Assembly: GCA_003599335.1 (NCBI GenBank)
Contig: QZJN01000005.1
Span: 1-58,395, forward strand
Length of the DNA stretch: 58,395 nucleotides
Reading direction: 5' to 3'
From: Candidatus Parcubacteria bacterium
Lineage (GTDB): Bacteria; Patescibacteriota; Minisyncoccia; SURF-38
Shown here: positions 11,917 to 35,776 of the stretch, piece by piece
Layout of the letters: each line of letters opens with the position of its first letter
Numbering within the stretch: position 1 is the stretch's first letter
Translations under genes and position numbers: made by a program
Notes under the pieces: generated by a model
The model's database searches: none
What the model was told of the DNA's origin: nothing
What the model saw: only the letters and a program-made list of their open reading frames with translations

Positions 11917-12113
11917 ACGCTAAATAAAGCGAAAGGATCTTTAAAAGACCTCATTAATCTGTCGGCGATTAAGGTTAATTTCCTCATTTGGCCTTAAAGG
12001 AGTTTTTCTTAGCTTACGGGCGGGTTGGTTTAGGCTGGCCTGTTCCTCAGAAAGGCTCTTATCTTTTGGCGCTACGCTAAAAGTAAATTGCCGGCGGATT
12101 AGTGGGGTTTTTT
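11917..12113 (+). ncRNA. Structured non-coding RNA 1 (6S-like size; four-way junction)
   Basis: 11943-11970 pairs with 12086-12113 over 28 consecutive bp using G.U wobbles (works only on + strand); inner hairpins 11971-11995, 11998-12060 and 12063-12083; ends in a U-tract; promoter upstream. Confidence 0.75.
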
Positions 12114-16473: not shown

Positions 16474-19064
16474 AGAGCGAAACAAAACTTCTGATTCTTG
16501 ACGCTCACGCCCTGATTCACAGGGCATATCATGCTTTGCCACCATCTTTTGTCACAAAAAGTGGCCAGTTGGTAAATGCCGTATACGGATTTACATCTGT
16601 TTTAATAAAAACCCTTCAGGATCAAAAACCAACTCATGTTGTGGCGGCTTTTGACTCAAAGCTGCCGACTTTCAGACACGAGAAATTCAAAGCTTACAAA
16701 GCACAAAGGCCAATAACGGCCGCAGATTTAACATCCCAAATCCCTTTAACAAAAAAGGTTCTCGAAGCTTTTGGCGTTCCAATTCTTGAGGCGCCGGGCT
16801 TTGAGGCCGATGATATTATAGGCGCTTTGGTTGAAAAATTTTTTGGCAAGGCCAAAATTTTAATAGTTACGGGAGATTTAGATGCTCTGCAACTTGTCAA
16901 AGATGGAGTGGAAGTTCTTACCTTTAAAAAAGGAGTTTCAGATGTTTTTATTTATGATAAAAAAGCCGTTTTTGACCGTTTTGGTTTAGAGCCTAAACAA
17001 TTGATAGATTTTAAGGCTCTTAAGGGGGATCCTTCCGATAACATTCCCGGCGTTCCTGGGATTGGAGAAAAAACAGCTTCAACGCTTCTTCAAAAATTCA
17101 AAACTATTGAAAAAATTTATGAGACAATAGAGATTCAAAATAGCGACATAAAGGATTCTCTAAAAAATAAATTAAAAGAAAATAAAGAGGTGGCTTTTTC
17201 AAGCAGAGATTTGGTCGTTTTAAAAACAGATATACCTCTTAAGGTCGAGCTTAAAGACACTGTTTTTGGGGGTCTTCAGCCAAACGAAAAAATTGAATCG
17301 CTATTCCAAGAATTCGGGTTTTTCAGTCTTTTTGAGAGACTTAATAAAAGCCAAACCAAATTCTCCAAAGAAGATGATGAGACTACACTCGGTTCAAAGA
17401 ACCAGAGTAATAAAACACGAATTTTTACTGAGGAAATCTACAAGAAGACCAAAAGGGTCCTAGTAGGCGTTTTAGAGGATGGAAGGTTTTTTATTTCCGC
17501 CAGCCCGGATGAACATTTTACTTTTGTTTTTTCTGGACTTGGCAAGATTAAAGATGTTCTCGAAAACAAAGAAGTTGAAAAGATAGGATACGATCTTAAA
17601 AAAACAAAACACGCTCTTATTAAAGAAGGAATCAATCTCGGTGGAAATTGTTTTGATGTGATGATAGCGGCTTATCTCTTGCATCCCGGGCGAAGGGATT
17701 ATCCTCTGGAAAGAATAGTTTTTCAGGAATTACGAAGACCACCCAATTCTTTGAAGTTACCCCAAGTTTTGGTTTTGGCCCTTTGGGAAATCTATGAAAG
17801 ACAATTAAAAAAACTTGAAGAAAACGATCTTAAAAAAGTCTTTTTTGAGATAGAAATGCCTTTAATTGATGTCCTTGTCAGAATGGAGGGGTGGGGAATT
17901 AAAGTTGAACTCTCGGATCTTAAAAAATTATCAAAAAAACTTAAATCACAACTCGATTTACTTGAGAATAAAATTCATAAAATCGCCGGTACCAAATTTA
18001 ATATCAATTCTCCGGCGCAACTTAGCGATATATTATTTAACAAATTAAGGATAGAAACAAAGGGTCTGCGCAAAACTCCCGGTGGCGTTATTTCCACCCA
18101 AGCCTCGGAACTTTCTAAATTGAGTCCAAACCCATTCATCGATTTGGTACTCGAATATCGGGAACTTTCTAAATTAAAAACCACTTATATTGATGCGCTA
18201 CCAAAGTTGGTGGATGTTGCAACCGGCAGGCTCCACACAAGTTTCGTTCAGACCGGCACGGCCACTGGCAGGCTTTCTTCAGAAGAGCCAAATTTACAAA
18301 ATATTCCAATCCGTTCTGAAGCGGCCCAAGACATACGAAGGGCTTTTATAGCCGAAAAAGGTTATGAGTTGGTTTCTTTTGATTACTCTCAAATAGAGCT
18401 TCGTCTGGCGGCGGCTTTCAGCCAAGACGAAAAGATGCTTGAAGCTTTTCGTTTGGGACAGGACATACACGCTCTCACGGCAGCCGAGGTTAACGGAATT
18501 CCGATAGAGAAAGTTGATGAAGAAATGCGCAGGCAGGCCAAGGTTTTAAACTTCGGTATTTTATACGGCATGGGAGCAAACGCCTTCGCGCAATCAGCCG
18601 GAGTTTCTAAAGAAAGAGCCAGAGAGTTTATTGATGAATATTTTAAAAAATTTGCAGGCGTTGCCCGTTATATAGAAGAGATAAAAGATCAGGCCCGCCA
18701 GCTTGGCTTTGTAAGGACAATAACAGGGAGGCGTCGTTATATTCCCGAAATTCACGCCCAGCATCAGATGGTTCGCTCTCAAGCCGAAAGAATTGCCGTT
18801 AATATGCCCATTCAAGGTTCCGACGCCGATATAAGCAAGATGAGCATGGTGGCTGTAGACAGAAAATTCTCCAACAGCAAAGATGTCAGGATGCTTCTTC
18901 AAATACACGACGCGCTGCTTTTTGAAATAAGCAAATCAAAAATTAAAGAAGTTGTTCCGGAAATAAAATCAATCATGGAGGGAATAATAAAGCTGCCGGT
19001 TGCCTTGAGGGTCGATGTTAAATCGGGTCCAAATTGGGGGGATGCTAAGCCATATAAAATCTGA
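16470..19064 (+). CDS. polA: DNA polymerase I
   Basis: 5'-3' exo (EADDIIG, TGDLD, GDPSDNIPGVPGIGEKTA); polymerase motifs DYSQIELR, AKVLNFGILYG, LLQIHDAL. Confidence 0.99.
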   Translation: MKSETKLLILDAHALIHRAYHALPPSFVTKSGQLVNAVYGFTSVLIKTLQDQKPTHVVAAFDSKLPTFRHEKFKAYKAQRPITAADLTSQIPLTKKVLEAFGVPILEAPGFEADDIIGALVEKFFGKAKILIVTGDLDALQLVKDGVEVLTFKKGVSDVFIYDKKAVFDRFGLEPKQLIDFKALKGDPSDNIPGVPGIGEKTASTLLQKFKTIEKIYETIEIQNSDIKDSLKNKLKENKEVAFSSRDLVVLKTDIPLKVELKDTVFGGLQPNEKIESLFQEFGFFSLFERLNKSQTKFSKEDDETTLGSKNQSNKTRIFTEEIYKKTKRVLVGVLEDGRFFISASPDEHFTFVFSGLGKIKDVLENKEVEKIGYDLKKTKHALIKEGINLGGNCFDVMIAAYLLHPGRRDYPLERIVFQELRRPPNSLKLPQVLVLALWEIYERQLKKLEENDLKKVFFEIEMPLIDVLVRMEGWGIKVELSDLKKLSKKLKSQLDLLENKIHKIAGTKFNINSPAQLSDILFNKLRIETKGLRKTPGGVISTQASELSKLSPNPFIDLVLEYRELSKLKTTYIDALPKLVDVATGRLHTSFVQTGTATGRLSSEEPNLQNIPIRSEAAQDIRRAFIAEKGYELVSFDYSQIELRLAAAFSQDEKMLEAFRLGQDIHALTAAEVNGIPIEKVDEEMRRQAKVLNFGILYGMGANAFAQSAGVSKERAREFIDEYFKKFAGVARYIEEIKDQARQLGFVRTITGRRRYIPEIHAQHQMVRSQAERIAVNMPIQGSDADISKMSMVAVDRKFSNSKDVRMLLQIHDALLFEISKSKIKEVVPEIKSIMEGIIKLPVALRVDVKSGPNWGDAKPYKI

Positions 19065-30931: not shown

Positions 30932-33019
30932 ATGGATTTCTTAAAAAATCTAAAAATAAAAAAGGTTTTGAGATTGCTGCGGGGTATTAAACCTTCTCCT
31001 CAATGGGTTTTAATGACTAGGGGTCGTCTTGAAAAACTCGCTGGTTTTGAGGTTAAGCCAAAACGGGAAATTTTTATAGTCAGAAATTTTGTTTTAAAAG
31101 CCGGGGTTGCCTTTGTTGCTTTTGCAATCGCCCTAGTCGGGACTTTTGCGAGTGCCAAGGAGAGTCTTCCAACAGATACTCTTTATCCTTTGAAATTATG
31201 GGGAGAAAGGGTCCAGAAAACCTTGATTTTGGGAGAGCAAAGCAAAGTTGAGTTCGCTTTAAGTTTGGCCGAAAGGCGTTTGAATGAAGCAGAAGAACTG
31301 GCTGCTTTGAAGGATGAAATTTTTGCCAACGAGGAAATAAAAGGAAAGGCTTTGGCAGTCATTGCTCCTTCTGATTCCGATCGAGGGGTTCTTTTAGCTG
31401 TTGAAAATTTTGAAAAACACCTTGGAGATGCCGAAGAGAGATTGGCTAAAATTGTAGACAGGGGAAACATTAACCAAATTTCTAAGATAGCGAAAAAGTT
31501 AGAACAAATTCAGGAGAGACAGCAACGCCTTCAGGAAAAATTAATCGTCCATCTCCCAGAGCTTGCACAGGCCCTTGAAGGAGCCCAAGTTGCATCTATT
31601 GAGGTTCAGAGAAACATAGACCGAGTTATTTTTACAATCAACACAACCGCTTCTTCCGGAGCGACTTCAAGCACGACAACGACGATTAGTTTGCAGAACA
31701 AAAACGCCGATAAAGCCGCTAAGGCCATTGAAAGGGCTGAACATAAAATATCAATCGTTGAAGATAAGCTGGAAAGATTTATTAACTCAACATCATCTGC
31801 TTTTTTCAGATTCAACGACGATGACGATGAAGATGATGATAAAAAATCTTTTGTACCACCGGGCCTTTTGAAGAAATTAAACTTTGAGCCAAATATTGCA
31901 TTTGCCAAGAGCAAGGGCAAAGATAAAATTGAAATAAAGTTCATAGAAAAAGATGATGTTTTTGAAAAACTGGAAGGAGCGAAAGAAAAAATTCTTGAGG
32001 CTAAAGAAAAATTAAACGAAGCCAAGTCTGCTTTTGCAGAAGGGGATTACGTAGAAGCTTATGAGAAGGCAATTGAGGCCTTTAAAAAAGCTGTTGAAGC
32101 CGAAGGAAAAATCAATAAAGGAGTTGGTTTTGGGGTGATTATTTCTCCCGATACCTCGGCGCCGTTAATAACCTCAATTTCGGTTCAGAGCGTCGGGACA
32201 TCTTCTGCGGTTATAAAATGGAGTACCAACGAACTTAGTGATTCGAGGGTTATGTATGGGACAAGCACAAGCTATGGGCTTGTGTCGGAAAATGGCGCTT
32301 TTGTCTTCACTCATTCGCTTTCATTATCTGGTCTTCAACCAAGTACGACATACCATTATAGAGTTATTTCCAATGATAAGTCCGGAAATACGGCGACTTC
32401 TTCTGATCATACATTTACAACAACATCGGCTGCTACAAGTGATACAACGGCGCCAGTGATTTCTTCTGTGGTTGTGAGTGCCGTTGGAACTTCTTCTGCA
32501 ACAATAAGTTGGTTTACAAATGAACCAGCAACTTCTCGCGTAAATTATGGGACAACTTCTTTGTACGGTCTCTTTGCGGTTAAAGACATTCTTGCAACAT
32601 CCCACAGTATTACTCTGAATGGACTGCAGGCTTCGACCTCATATCATTTTCAGGCTCGATCCGTTGATGGTTCGGGCAACATCGCGATTTCTTCAGACGG
32701 AGTGTTTATAACTTCTGGCTTGCCGGATACAACCGCGCCCGTGATTTCTGGAATTTCCGTAAGCGCAGTCTCGACAAGCTCGGCGACGATAAATTGGACA
32801 ACCAATGAGCCGGCCGATTCCTGGGTTGAGTTTGGCACGAGTTCAAGTTACGGCTTGGGTTCCTCAACCTCGGCTCTAGTCACGAATCACTCCATTGGTT
32901 TGTCGGGATTGTTTGAAAACACAATGTATCATTTCAGAATTTCCTCGGCAGACGCTTCCAGCAATACATCTGTTTCTTCAGACAACTCTTTTACCACAGC
33001 TTCAAGTTCAGCAGAGTAA
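30932..33019 (+). CDS. Putative anti-sigma factor: TM + DUF5667-like domain + three fibronectin-III/PAP-N-like repeats
   Basis: SLPTDTLYPLKLWGE.V....A.RRL.EA after a TM; three DT.AP.I....V..V.TSSA.I.W.TNE..S.V.YGT...YG...H...L.GL...T.YH repeats; directly follows the ECF sigma. Confidence 0.85.
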   Translation: MDFLKNLKIKKVLRLLRGIKPSPQWVLMTRGRLEKLAGFEVKPKREIFIVRNFVLKAGVAFVAFAIALVGTFASAKESLPTDTLYPLKLWGERVQKTLILGEQSKVEFALSLAERRLNEAEELAALKDEIFANEEIKGKALAVIAPSDSDRGVLLAVENFEKHLGDAEERLAKIVDRGNINQISKIAKKLEQIQERQQRLQEKLIVHLPELAQALEGAQVASIEVQRNIDRVIFTINTTASSGATSSTTTTISLQNKNADKAAKAIERAEHKISIVEDKLERFINSTSSAFFRFNDDDDEDDDKKSFVPPGLLKKLNFEPNIAFAKSKGKDKIEIKFIEKDDVFEKLEGAKEKILEAKEKLNEAKSAFAEGDYVEAYEKAIEAFKKAVEAEGKINKGVGFGVIISPDTSAPLITSISVQSVGTSSAVIKWSTNELSDSRVMYGTSTSYGLVSENGAFVFTHSLSLSGLQPSTTYHYRVISNDKSGNTATSSDHTFTTTSAATSDTTAPVISSVVVSAVGTSSATISWFTNEPATSRVNYGTTSLYGLFAVKDILATSHSITLNGLQASTSYHFQARSVDGSGNIAISSDGVFITSGLPDTTAPVISGISVSAVSTSSATINWTTNEPADSWVEFGTSSSYGLGSSTSALVTNHSIGLSGLFENTMYHFRISSADASSNTSVSSDNSFTTASSSAE

Positions 33020-33035
33020 ACAAAAGAAAGTAAAC

Positions 33036-33109: not shown

Positions 33110-33769
33110 ATGAAAGATATAACATATCGTTTATCTCCCTCAAGTCTTAACTTGCTGCGGGATTGCCCGAGGTGTTTTTGGCTTAAATATCGTCTCAAGA
33201 TTGATCGGCCTTCTTCTCCTTTGGCCAGTATTGCTACAGGTTTGGATTTGAATATAAAAAATTATTTTGGTAAATACCGAGTGAAAGGTTTGTTGCCTCC
33301 GATACTTGAAAAAAAGGTTTCAGGGCGCAACCTCAAGTTGGTTCCAAGGCCCATATCTTTTCTTAAATTCATAGACGAAGAGGGGGTTGTGTTTGTCGGA
33401 AAACTGGATGAAGCTCTTATTTTGGATGACAAATTTTATGCTCCGCTTGACCATAAAACAAGAGCTTCTCCTACTCAAAATGTTCACCAGGCTTATCAGT
33501 TGCAGATGGATGCATACGATCTACTCTTAGAAAAAAATGGTTATAAAACCAAAAACGTTGCCTTTTTGGCATACTTTACACCGCGTTCCGGGGAGCTTCA
33601 TCTGGGTTTTCCTTTTGATTTAGATTTGAAAGAAATAAAAACTTCGCCTCAGCGCGCTCAAGATTTCATAAATAAAGCTAAAGATACGCTTCTTTCAGAA
33701 GACATTCCGGTTGCAAGCCCGACTTGCCAATTTTGCGGGTACATTAACAGACTTAGCGAAACTCTTTAA
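33110..33769 (+). CDS. PD-(D/E)XK nuclease, Cas4/AddB-like (PDDEXK_1)
   Basis: LSPSSLNL..DCPRCFW, GKLDE.L....LDHKT, QL..Y, C-terminal CQFC. Confidence 0.9.
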   Translation: MKDITYRLSPSSLNLLRDCPRCFWLKYRLKIDRPSSPLASIATGLDLNIKNYFGKYRVKGLLPPILEKKVSGRNLKLVPRPISFLKFIDEEGVVFVGKLDEALILDDKFYAPLDHKTRASPTQNVHQAYQLQMDAYDLLLEKNGYKTKNVAFLAYFTPRSGELHLGFPFDLDLKEIKTSPQRAQDFINKAKDTLLSEDIPVASPTCQFCGYINRLSETL

Positions 33770-33803: not shown

Positions 33804-33831
33804 TTGCAATAGATTTTAGTTGAGCTAAAAT
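33804..33831 (+). promoter_or_regulatory. sigma70-like promoter (16-nt spacer) overlapped by two inverted repeats
   Basis: TTGCAA (33804-09), 16 nt, TAAAAT (33826-31); IRs ATTGC/GCAAT (33795-810) and ATTTTAG/CTAAAAT (33813-31). Confidence 0.55.
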
Positions 33832-33837
33832 TAAATC

Positions 33838-34025
33838 AGAGGGAAAGGCCAAATGAGGAAAACTTAATCGTCAAAAAGCTCCGGACCCTCGGTAGTTCTT
33901 CTCGCTGGATATCCAGCATTCTCATAGCTCTTTTCTTTTTCAATATAGTTCTTTTCCTGTCGCCACGAGCGGCAGACCCACTCACTTTTTCAACACGAGC
34001 GGCATCTGCCCTCGTGGTCTTTTTT
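33838..34025 (+). ncRNA. Candidate small RNA 2 (5' end complementary to RNA 1)
   Basis: ~190 nt between a promoter-like element and a hairpin+T6 terminator (33994-34025); no ATG-started ORF except MRKT*; 14-bp palindrome at 33904-17; 33845-33872 complementary to 11964-11995. Confidence 0.5.
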
Positions 34026-34109: not shown

Positions 34110-34631
34110 ATGACAAAACTTGCGAAGTTTTTTTTATTGCTTTTGATTCTGACGGTCGTTGCCGGGCTCGTGGGCTGGCAGCAGTACGTCGTGCCAGTCA
34201 AAGACTCGTTGCATTTTTACCAGACCCAACTTCGCAATGAGCAATGTCTTCGACTCGCCCAGTTCAGGCTTGTTGAAGCCTACGCTGCAAACCCTGCCCG
34301 TCTGCCAAGCGGGGTTTTCGACGAGAACGCTTACGTCGTAGAGCTGCCGTGGGGTTCAAGGTACACCTATTCCCAACTCCAAGAGGAGGCCTACGCTCCT
34401 TTTTTGAGAGACAAATCGCGGCCTTGGCCCCTGGTCAAGGACAACCAGGGGAATGTCGCGGTTTCACCCCAAAGCTCCAAACAGGAATTTGGTGTGAACC
34501 AAGGAATTTTTCCTCGGTCGGACTCGAATGGATTACGGCAAGGGAAAGTCTATCCGACCCTGAATGATGTTCCAGAAGAACTTAGGGCCAAAGCGGTGTA
34601 TCTGACAAACCTTGGTTGGTTTGTGCCATAG
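34110..34631 (+). CDS. Membrane-anchored hypothetical protein
   Basis: AAGGAG 7 nt before ATG; N-terminal TM; TTGACA at 34038; GC-richer codons; terminator after. Confidence 0.8.
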   Translation: MTKLAKFFLLLLILTVVAGLVGWQQYVVPVKDSLHFYQTQLRNEQCLRLAQFRLVEAYAANPARLPSGVFDENAYVVELPWGSRYTYSQLQEEAYAPFLRDKSRPWPLVKDNQGNVAVSPQSSKQEFGVNQGIFPRSDSNGLRQGKVYPTLNDVPEELRAKAVYLTNLGWFVP

Positions 34632-34637
34632 GACGCT

Positions 34638-34680
34638 TGCCCCGACAATAGAGAAATCTGTTGTCGGGGCAGCTTTGTTT
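34638..34680 (+). terminator. Intrinsic terminator
   Basis: TGCCCCGACAATAG-AGAAAT-CTGTTGTCGGGGCA then GCTTTGTTT. Confidence 0.85.
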
Positions 34681-34698
34681 ACGGCGCTATCAATACTA

Positions 34699-34727
34699 TT
34701 GACTTTTAGTTATTTATATAGTATAAT
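34699..34727 (+). promoter_or_regulatory. Near-consensus sigma70 promoter
   Basis: TTGACT (34699-704), 17 nt, TATAAT (34722-27). Confidence 0.8.
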
Positions 34728-34756
34728 ATATTTGTTATTTATAATTATTTAATTCG

Positions 34757-34820
34757 TGTTCAGGCAGCTTTAGGGGAAGCACCTTAAAAATATTTTAAAA
34801 CCCCTGAAGCTGGCTGGACA
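34757..34820 (+). promoter_or_regulatory. Long 5'-leader hairpin (candidate cis-regulatory RNA)
   Basis: 34757-76 pairs with 34801-20 (19/20 bp, two G.U); AT-rich loop with internal TTAAAA-ATA-TTTTAA. Confidence 0.6.
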
Positions 34821-34891
34821 GGAAAGCGTTCAGCAAGTAAACGAACCTTACAAAAAAACAAACGGGCCAAAAAACCAACGAGGAGGAGTGA

Positions 34892-35776
34892 ATGAAAAAA
34901 GCTTTGTTGTTGGTTGTGGTTGTGCTGTTGGCTGCAGGGTTGAGTTTTGCGAGCCAACGGCAAGACGCCAAAGTCATTGATTTGGCCGGCGTCGATGTCC
35001 CGCCCAACGCCGAGGTTGAAAAATACCCGGTTTTCGGAGGGCGGTTGAGCGAACGCCAGGAAGCCGAGCTGAAATTAAGGCCGGTTTACCTGGAGAGGGA
35101 ATTTTCCGGTCATAACTGGCATCAGTCCCGGCGGCAATTCGTCTTTGACGTGTTGCCAGCCGGCACAATGGTTCTGGTTGATTTGGCTGGAGTTCCCCGC
35201 TACAAAATGGATTGTGGAAACCGGCTGGTTGCTTGGGAGCAGTCTTGCCCTAAGTGTCCAGAACCGGTTCCTGCAGCCAAAACGGCAGGTCAGGAACAAT
35301 CTTCCAAGAGCTTCACGGATCGTCTCAAGGATTTTATCAGCGCTCTGTGGAGGTTTCTTGGTTGGCTTCTTGCCTTGCTTGCCGCGCTTGCGCTGGTCGG
35401 TCTGTTGCTGTGGTTGTTCTGGCAGTTGATCCGGCGCCTCTTGCGAGCATTTCGCAGCAACAGGGGCGGTGGAGGAGTCAGGACTCCTTTGCGGCCTGTT
35501 GCTCCAACGCCTGTTTCTTCGCTGGCCGCTACTCCCGGCCAAGATTCTGCGGCTGCCTTACCGGCTGAACCAGCCTCGCCTGCTACCGGAGAAGAGCGCA
35601 AATATGGACCAACCGGACCACCCTCTGGTCCTGTTGTGCCGCAAAAGCGATTCTTTTCTTTTCACGCCGGCTCTGGAGGACAAGACCCCGATAAGGTTAA
35701 GTTCTCCGGTTATCGGAGCGTGAGTGTTACCATCGACGAGTCCGCCGGCGAGACGACCATCACGGCCCGCGTCTAG
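34892..35776 (+). CDS. Secreted/membrane protein with DUF6777-like motif and Pro-rich cytoplasmic tail
   Basis: GAGGAGGAG RBS; signal peptide; LPAGTMVLVDLAGVPRYKMDCGNRL resembles the DUF6777 C-terminal motif as recalled; one TM; P/A-rich tail. Confidence 0.75.
   Translation: MKKALLLVVVVLLAAGLSFASQRQDAKVIDLAGVDVPPNAEVEKYPVFGGRLSERQEAELKLRPVYLEREFSGHNWHQSRRQFVFDVLPAGTMVLVDLAGVPRYKMDCGNRLVAWEQSCPKCPEPVPAAKTAGQEQSSKSFTDRLKDFISALWRFLGWLLALLAALALVGLLLWLFWQLIRRLLRAFRSNRGGGGVRTPLRPVAPTPVSSLAATPGQDSAAALPAEPASPATGEERKYGPTGPPSGPVVPQKRFFSFHAGSGGQDPDKVKFSGYRSVSVTIDESAGETTITARV

Follow-up and report, generated by a model that had tools for sequence, protein, structure and literature searches.

The window analysed here is the entire contig C9 (58,395 nt) of a 690-kb, 14-contig genome of Patescibacteria type, hereafter W, which is the sole member of both its GTDB family and its GTDB order. 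The spacer between a gene for a Cas4-like nuclease and an orphan ORF holds the candidate gene for a small RNA, RNA 2, with a promoter, a 5' box complementary to a second structured RNA of the same contig (RNA 1), a pyrimidine-rich tract and an intrinsic terminator with a doubled 5' arm (Table 1). A third copy of the box motif lies on another contig, C14, at the start of a gene for a predicted surface protein.

Table 1. Features of the RNA 2 locus and of its two putative partners (positions in the window unless another contig is named)
Feature	Position	Strand	Remarks
RNA 1	11944-12113	+	four-way-junction RNA; hairpin 2 at 11971-11995
PD-(D/E)XK (Cas4-like) nuclease ORF	33110-33769		upstream of RNA 2; Pfam PF12705
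RNA 2 spacer	between ORFs 33110-33769 and 34110-34631		340 nt
RNA 2 promoter	33804-33831	+	-35 TTGCAA 33804-09, 16-nt spacer, -10 TAAAAT 33826-31; from promoter scan
Predicted RNA 2 transcript	33838-34025	+	about 188 nt; start inferred from -10 box, 3' end from terminator
5' box AAGGCCAAAUGAGGAAA	33845-33861	+	sole invariant internal block; core CCAAAUGAGG
Mini-ORF AUG AGG AAA ACU UAA (MRKT*)	33853-33867	+	inside 5' box
'Helix 2' CUUAAUCGUC	33863-33872	+	complement of RNA 1 11964-11973; 9 Watson-Crick pairs and 1 G-U
Palindrome GCUGGAUAUCCAGC (= GCTGGATATCCAGC)	33904-33917	+	perfect, 14 nt; 5-bp RNA hairpin
CU-rich tract	33927-33957	+	two (G)YUCUUUU motifs, 33927-41 and 33948-57
Small hairpin CUGUCGC / GCGGCAG	33957-33975	+	arms 33957-63 and 33969-75; from prefix folds
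Distal copy of CACGAGCGGCA	33964-33974	+	5' arm of long hairpin
Working intrinsic terminator	33994-34025	+	proximal copy 33994-34004, 3' arm 34005-17, U6 34020-25
Orphan 173-aa ORF	34110-34631		downstream of RNA 2
C14 site UUUAAGGCCAAAUGAGGAAAUUAAC	C14 118326-50 (locus L102 8227-8251)	+	25-nt perfect complement of RNA 1 11974-98

Signals of a small-RNA gene

Units homologous to RNA 2 were recovered in five genomes, namely W, organism B (L034/L041; an 88.8-kb contig with conserved gene order), organism D (L039) and two further relatives (L037 and L040). In all five the unit lies on the + strand behind the Cas4-like nuclease, homologs of which close to that of W (68-74% identity) were found only in ENA and Logan assemblies. 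The units share a promoter of the form TTGCRA-N16/17-TAnnnT, a box containing CCAAAUGAGG, a CU-rich tract and, at the 3' end, a GC hairpin with a run of U5-6; T1, T2, G3, C4 and A6 of the -35 box, which occupies the same location in each homolog, are invariant. Between these shared elements the homologs can barely be aligned, which argues for selection on the promoter, box, CU tract and terminator. Two G-U pairs occur in each of the terminator stems of L037 and L034; on the opposite strand they would become A-C mismatches, and as such pairs are valid on the + strand only, RNA 2 is to be read from that strand.

No ORF is conserved in RNA 2 among the five homologs, and a 49-aa ORF on the minus strand lacks a counterpart in the relatives. 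The 188-nt RNA 2 folds better than its shuffled versions (z = -4.3). Rfam searches at the gathering threshold returned no match in the window, the best sub-threshold hit for RNA 2 being a chance miRNA match (18.7 bits against a threshold of 98). As predicted from its sequence, RNA 2 thus displays the signals of a trans-encoded sRNA: its own promoter (of the sigma-70 type) and terminator, an intergenic position and a non-coding character. The original prediction of a stand-alone sRNA at 33838-34025 is upheld by the conservation of promoter, 5' box and terminator on the + strand of five genomes, and we regard RNA 2 as very probably a genuine + strand sRNA gene of about 190 nt. The clade bearing it appears to be rare, with no further motif-bearing members in JGI metagenomes or GTDB genomes: the exact 18-mer TTCCTCATTTGGCCTTAA had only unrelated matches in JGI metagenomes and GTDB genome contigs, and the box is absent downstream of the nuclease in 20 genomes of the class.

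The 5' box conforms to the consensus (A/G)G(G/U)CCAAAUGAGG in the five homologs, its CCAAAUGAGG part being invariant. Two other internal elements had been pointed out originally, and both are present: a perfect 14-bp palindrome and a long pyrimidine tract, the latter as a stretch of 77% C+T (33918-33960). The sequence of the palindrome is not conserved, the relatives having other small hairpins at other positions. The two UCUUUU-type motifs of the CU tract were found again in all five homologs, and for W and L037 the minimum free energy (MFE) fold joins the tract to the region of the 5' box by base-pairing. At RNA 2 33927-33939, a stretch reading GCUCUU(U/A)UCUUUU is identical in the same sense to RNA 1 12024-12036 at 12 of 13 positions; it is absent from organism B, and is probably a low-complexity coincidence.

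Downstream of RNA 2 the gene varies from genome to genome. The cassette beginning at 34110, which had been proposed as a regulated downstream gene, is not conserved: L037 has a neighbour unlike that of W, and organism B, represented here by the closest long relative contig (L041), lacks the ORFs 34110-34631 and 34892-35776. In W, the stretch 34110-35776 carries the orphan ORF and a DUF6777-like ORF, both missing from L041, and these two genes look like a lineage-specific insertion; at L041 10652-11084, RNA 2 is followed directly by a 101-aa Nfu_N-like gene and a cyclophilin gene. A TTGACA box is found 3' of the RNA 2 terminator in W, L034 and L037, and the promoter of the next gene in W reads TTGACA-17-TATTAG, with an imperfect -10 box. 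At L034 3886-4084 (organism B) we observed a near-consensus promoter (TTGACA-17-TATACT) and a leader of about 170 nt, which may be a structured 5' UTR, ahead of the 101-aa Nfu_N-like gene. In L037 (1648-2100), a 150-aa ORF without a Pfam match separates the nuclease from the RNA 2 gene, and 3' of RNA 2 there is a second hairpin with a T run, followed by a strong TTGACA/TATAAT promoter.

The doubled terminator arm

The 11-mer CACGAGCGGCA occurs twice in RNA 2, and both copies can pair with the one 3' arm, TCTGCCCTCGTGG, which is followed by TC and then by T6. The two hairpins described in the original prediction were recovered: a compact proximal terminator (6+3 bp, a 1-nt bulge and a 4-nt loop; -13.3 to -14.9 kcal/mol) and a long distal helix of 8+6 bp with one bulged C and a loop of about 28 nt containing a few weak pairs (-29.2 to -29.8 kcal/mol). 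In the equilibrium ensemble of the full RNA 2 the distal hairpin has a probability of 0.999 (-29.8 versus -14.9 kcal/mol for the proximal hairpin alone). Folding of successive prefixes, the cotranscriptional prediction that had been called for, gave a likely kinetic route: the distal copy is held in the small hairpin 33957-75 as long as the 3' arm is untranscribed, and the proximal terminator comes next. The small hairpin together with the proximal terminator amounts to -25.7 kcal/mol, against -29.8 kcal/mol for the long hairpin, so that the two 3'-end states are 4 kcal/mol apart, and the barrier separating them is estimated at about 18 kcal/mol. The proximal and distal hairpins are, as originally described, mutually exclusive.

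W displays what is expected of an intrinsic terminator, namely a GC-rich stem, here of 9 bp or 14 bp, followed by U6 on the transcribed strand. Since the same 3' arm adjoins the same U tract in each fold, both folds are terminators. The folding models make the compact proximal hairpin the likely co-transcriptional form and predict that the 3' end of RNA 2 is bistable, yet with termination in both states. During synthesis, the distal copy would first be caught in the hairpin 33957-75, whereupon the compact proximal hairpin would form and end transcription; the released RNA 2 may then refold into the more stable long hairpin, which in these models would at most give a sturdier 3' end.

The repeat of the 11-mer is by itself not beyond chance, and it is its position that makes it non-random: at least two matches with no more than one mismatch were obtained in 12 of 100 shuffles of the window, and local direct repeats of at least 11 nt within 60 nt number about 4 in the window against a mean of 2.4 (Markov-1 k-mer hits). 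The same control count returned other short local direct repeats in the window, at 33015-33031 and 18107-18165. Between the two 30-nt units, 33964-93 and 33994-34023, the match continues past the repeated 11-mer with CCC and a T run after it. When the five genomes are aligned, W is longer than the others by about 30 bases at the 3' end, and its distal unit, with a decayed TTTTTC, aligns to the single terminator of the relatives, each of the four having one plain hairpin (-13 to -21 kcal/mol) followed by U5-6. Of the two tandem 30-nt units, the first has decayed and is represented by the distal copy together with 33979-33990. The simplest history suggested by this alignment would be that about 30 nt of the terminator were duplicated in tandem in the lineage of W, and that the first unit then lost its own 3' arm.

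These properties bear on the original proposal that the two exclusive hairpins act as a switch tuning termination against read-through into the gene at 34110, possibly set by RNA 1. Two alternative folds do exist, with a sizeable barrier between them, and given the imperfect -10 box of the next gene some read-through could matter in W. Against the switch, either fold terminates at the same U tract and nothing pairs the 3' arm away; we found no antiterminator fold in RNA 2, every low-energy state keeping 34005-17 paired with one or the other copy. The proposal had itself set beforehand, as the outcome counting against a switch, an absence of the duplication from relatives, and the doubled arm is absent from all four of them (L034, L037, L039 and L040). 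The downstream gene, as seen above, is not conserved either. Of the suggested coupling to RNA 1, the complementarity of the 5' end of RNA 2 to RNA 1 holds, but more than 90 nt separate the pairing site from the repeat copies, which lie downstream of it and do not overlap it. None of the three marks of a terminator/antiterminator system, a sequestering fold, conserved competing elements or a regulated downstream gene, was found. We conclude with high confidence that there is no termination switch at RNA 2; tuning of read-through by the two hairpins is very unlikely.

In attenuators and riboswitch platforms such as the trp leader and the T-box, an alternative helix abolishes the terminator. RNA 2 resembles these in having mutually exclusive helices next to a U tract, but differs in that both alternatives terminate and in having neither a conserved sensor part nor a fixed downstream gene. 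Its GC-rich stem directly before a U tract is that of an ordinary Rho-independent terminator, of which the relatives have the plain form, whereas in W the second 5' arm, a remnant of the duplication, can form a longer stem with the one 3' arm as an alternative.

Complementarity to RNA 1 and to a surface-protein gene

The structure of RNA 1 was rebuilt from six sequences and includes 21 covarying pairs. The resulting covariance model (R1) finds a single copy in 227 of the 401 class genomes sampled, or at least 57% of them, a breadth that suggests a housekeeping-type RNA. The 5' box of RNA 2 is a perfect 17-nt complement of RNA 1 11979-11995, which comprises the 9-nt loop and the 3' arm of hairpin 2. 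Apart from W, RNA 1 of organism B was obtained by walking along its contig, that of organism D was taken from the same sample as L039 (ERR10114879), and two more copies came from close relatives, giving five copies from the subclade. Contiguous pairing between box and RNA 1 amounts to 17 bp in W, 15 bp in B and 12(+3) bp in D, the three pairs in which both RNAs come from the same organism. All five subclade copies of RNA 1 carry UUCCUCAUUUGGCCUUAA unaltered, while elsewhere in the molecule compensated changes occur; hairpin 2 varies freely in loop length and in sequence in the class at large and in F, the nearest outgroup. After subtraction of the costs of opening both RNAs, as estimated from opening energies, the net energy of the box pairing is -7.4 kcal/mol in W, -14.7 in B and -8.1 in D. 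The box of organism D contains a U-C mismatch without compensation in its RNA 1. As in a conserved seed, the box is invariant and its complementarity to RNA 1 is kept in the three same-organism pairs. On this comparative evidence the pairing of the RNA 2 box with RNA 1 is rather more probably functional than fortuitous, and base-pairing of the 5' box with hairpin 2 of RNA 1 is the most likely candidate for the conserved, selected function of RNA 2.

Just 3' of the box, a shorter complementarity (helix 2) is directed at the inner end of the closing stem of RNA 1, on its inner 5' strand. An equivalent occurs in every homolog at a varying distance from the box. In organism B, a small hairpin is inserted between the two, and both partners have changed together, RNA 1 from GGCGAUU to GGUAAUU and RNA 2 from AAUCGUC to AAGUACC (CG to UA). 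Energy tests of helix 2 are weak in the same-organism pairs (p =.16 in W,.06 in B and.30 in D) and strong only in L037 and L040, whose RNA 1 partners were inferred from other samples; we predict RNA 1 of the GGCAAUUAAG type for L037 and of the GGUAAUUAAGG type for L040. The use of helix 2 costs 20 kcal/mol because the closing stem of RNA 1 must open, which makes it unfavourable at equilibrium in W. Being unfavourable there and non-significant by energy in the three same-organism pairs, helix 2 pairing is suggestive only.

Whole-molecule duplexfold and cofold calculations of RNA 1 with RNA 2 were uninformative, shuffles giving similar energies. The MFE dimers join the RNA 1 5' leader to the GUUCUUU motif of RNA 2 (ddG -5.6 to -7.8) and show no specificity, random genome fragments reaching -6.4 and non-cognate pairs being equally good. 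Apart from the complementarity of the box, no wider similarity was found between the RNA 1 and RNA 2 loci on either strand. RNA 2 was also considered as a paralog of RNA 1, and rejected because the R1 model matches neither strand of its locus.

Across the class, blastn with RNA 1 returned chance matches only, those in G050 and G308 lying in coding regions. On the contig of outgroup F synteny breaks and the contig ends before RNA 2, and the F arm has no partner site in its 21 kb. A search of 19 other class genomes for second sites complementary to their own RNA 1 arm gave about 6-7 weak ones against about 2.9 expected, none of them a perfect 17 nt. As these 19 genomes have no comparable second site, the circuit is not a general property of RNA 1; it would be confined to this lineage, or else escape detection in the rest of the class.

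The 16-mer AAGGCCAAATGAGGAA occurs at exactly three sites in the 690-kb genome: in the antisense of RNA 1, in RNA 2 and at the start of the C14 gene. A 10-mer at C11 1478, considered as a further site, falls within coding sequence and matches by chance. The C14 site spans the first in-frame ATG of an ORF that is 575 aa or longer, runs off the contig end and belongs to a family of secreted, repeat-rich, tail-fibre-like surface proteins widespread in Patescibacteria. Its pairing with RNA 1 has a predicted net energy of -23.6 kcal/mol. The 17-nt RNA 2 box is identical to C14 118329-45, within the 25-nt complement of RNA 1, and the R1 model at this site matches model positions 29-51 only. A second ATG of the ORF, 17 codons further on (MRFAFAALL...), could be the real start; TATAAT and AAGGAGG are found a short way upstream.

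The likeness of RNA 2 to the C14 gene extends beyond the box. The RNA 2 flank upstream of the box aligns with the promoter region of the C14 gene (p ~0.014), and with nhmmer a profile of the RNA 2 genes from all five genomes picks up C14 118284-118398 (E = 0.019) as well as the antisense of RNA 1 (E = 0.011). Since its promoter and leader both resemble those of the C14 gene, RNA 2 gives the impression of a duplicate of the 5' part of that gene (promoter, leader and start codon) to which a terminator has been joined. The RNA 1-complementary mRNA site was seen in one genome, W; in close relatives no ortholog of the C14 gene was found, the best match being 58% identical with a different N-terminus. 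The W genome has no Hfq and does have RNase III, which fits long duplexes that are independent of a chaperone.

Possible roles of RNA 2

These observations can be combined in a model in which RNA 1 would pair in antisense with the surface-protein mRNA through hairpin 2 as its seed, beginning at the 9-nt loop and without Hfq, to give a 25-bp duplex over the first AUG of the C14 mRNA. RNA 2, under a look-alike promoter, would offer a weaker copy of the C14 site and would either act as a target mimic or sponge, competing for RNA 1, or itself constitute a second RNA 1 target. Because RNA 1 is predicted to bind the mRNA far more strongly, with RNA 2 providing a weaker site under a similar promoter, the role of target mimic or competitor is favoured; the same gap in predicted affinity means that a decoy would have to be abundant. 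The account that in our view best explains the whole locus, an RNA 2 of about 190 nt with a duplicated terminator and a 5' box that serves as RNA 1 mimic or competitor, has roughly even chances of being right. A role as mimic or decoy specifically is a tentative proposal of somewhat lower probability, to which the second-target role is a close alternative. The sequences show gene signals, conservation, complementarities and energetics; from these we infer that RNA 2 is transcribed and pairs in vivo, and that the mRNA is regulated and in which direction. A fuller scenario is that the subclade recruited one hairpin of RNA 1 as a lineage-specific antisense module, which represses the surface-protein mRNA over its start codon, and that RNA 2, born from a copy of the promoter-leader, became a dedicated anti-RNA that sets the level of free RNA 1 or remodels its closing stem; this scenario as a whole would be rather unlikely on present indications.

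The resemblance to the C14 gene also invites a reading in which RNA 2 is a relic, the decaying 5' end of a surface-protein gene with a terminator, having no function of its own and a match to RNA 1 that was inherited; the complementarity could indeed simply come with the copied mRNA leader. Promoter and leader are like those of the C14 gene, and the box ATG opens only 3-5 codons. A decaying fragment is, however, hard to reconcile with a promoter, box and terminator that are intact in five lineages at a nuclease identity of only 68-74%, with the rest of the spacer scrambled, and these genomes are small and compact. We judge the relic improbable. The short reading frame may instead be what is kept: CCAAAUGAGG would then be conserved for an AUG-AGG peptide of 3-5 codons (MRKT in W; MRFT*, MRT*, MRKTG* and MRNRS* in the relatives), with ribosome occupancy acting as a sensor of the leader-peptide or start-stop type. 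A very short ORF does start at the box ATG in all five homologs, and a purine stretch of the GAGG type precedes it in W, L037 and L040. Translation is doubtful because the spacing of these Shine-Dalgarno-like stretches is inconsistent among the homologs (4 to more than 15 nt, with no good one in L039). Stop codons are common in AT-rich sequence, there is no conserved downstream gene for a leader to control, and the conservation reaches 5' of the AUG (AAGG/AAGU-CC), exactly to the limit of the RNA 1 complement. A peptide-based role consequently appears quite improbable.

Reading the locus from the minus strand, as a long hairpin RNA or the 49-aa ORF (33836-33985) within a partial paralog of RNA 1, has in its favour that the hairpin 33962-34018 gains G-U pairs there and that 26 of 30 nt are identical to RNA 1 in the same sense. 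That strand has no conserved promoter or terminator, the ORF is absent or unrelated in relatives, the R1 model matches nothing beyond the fragment and the 5' arm of the RNA 1 hairpin is missing; the terminators of the relatives, moreover, require the + strand. A minus-strand feature is accordingly the least credible of the alternatives, with hardly any probability attached to it.

If RNA 2 acts as a mimic of an RNA 1 target, it would join the anti-sRNAs, sponges and mimics exemplified by AgvB-GcvB in EHEC, SroC-GcvB, the chbBC spacer with ChiX, 3'ETS-leuZ and RosA of B. subtilis. A Campylobacter sRNA with an encoded antagonist has also been reported (PMC8687705). Like the sponges and mimics, RNA 2 would be made separately, carries a copy of a putative mRNA target site and could titrate a pairing regulator; extended complementarity and the RNase III of the W genome are further points of likeness. 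It differs from them in a partner that is a class-wide, single-copy, four-way-junction RNA and not a typical seed-bearing sRNA, in pairing through the variable hairpin of this RNA in a genome without Hfq, and in that the mimic seems to be derived from the entire promoter-leader module of the target gene. CopA/CopT and RNA I/RNA II are antisense pairs that begin at loops and are cis-encoded on opposite strands of one locus. With these RNA 1 shares a 9-nt loop complementary to its partner, from which contact may spread into the stem, and a long perfect duplex that needs no chaperone; unlike them, the three partners described here lie 22 kb apart or on another contig.

The genomes of Patescibacteria are tiny, and surface contact with hosts is essential to these organisms. 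To our knowledge they lack Hfq, and as far as our literature search shows essentially nothing is known of RNA-based regulation in this group (also termed CPR). Should the proposed relations be true, a three-RNA circuit would control the cell-surface make-up of an Hfq-less, ultra-small bacterium of the episymbiont type. The locus yields a testable trio, in which a conserved sRNA is joined by the variable arm of a structured RNA of wide distribution and by the start region of a gene for a secreted repeat protein, and hints at a role, in one lineage or more, of the enigmatic four-way-junction RNA 1. Its interest lies in the 5' box and the two partners of the box and not in the 3' end, and the idea of a terminator switch can be dropped. 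The 25-nt complement of RNA 1 at the start of the C14 gene is new here.
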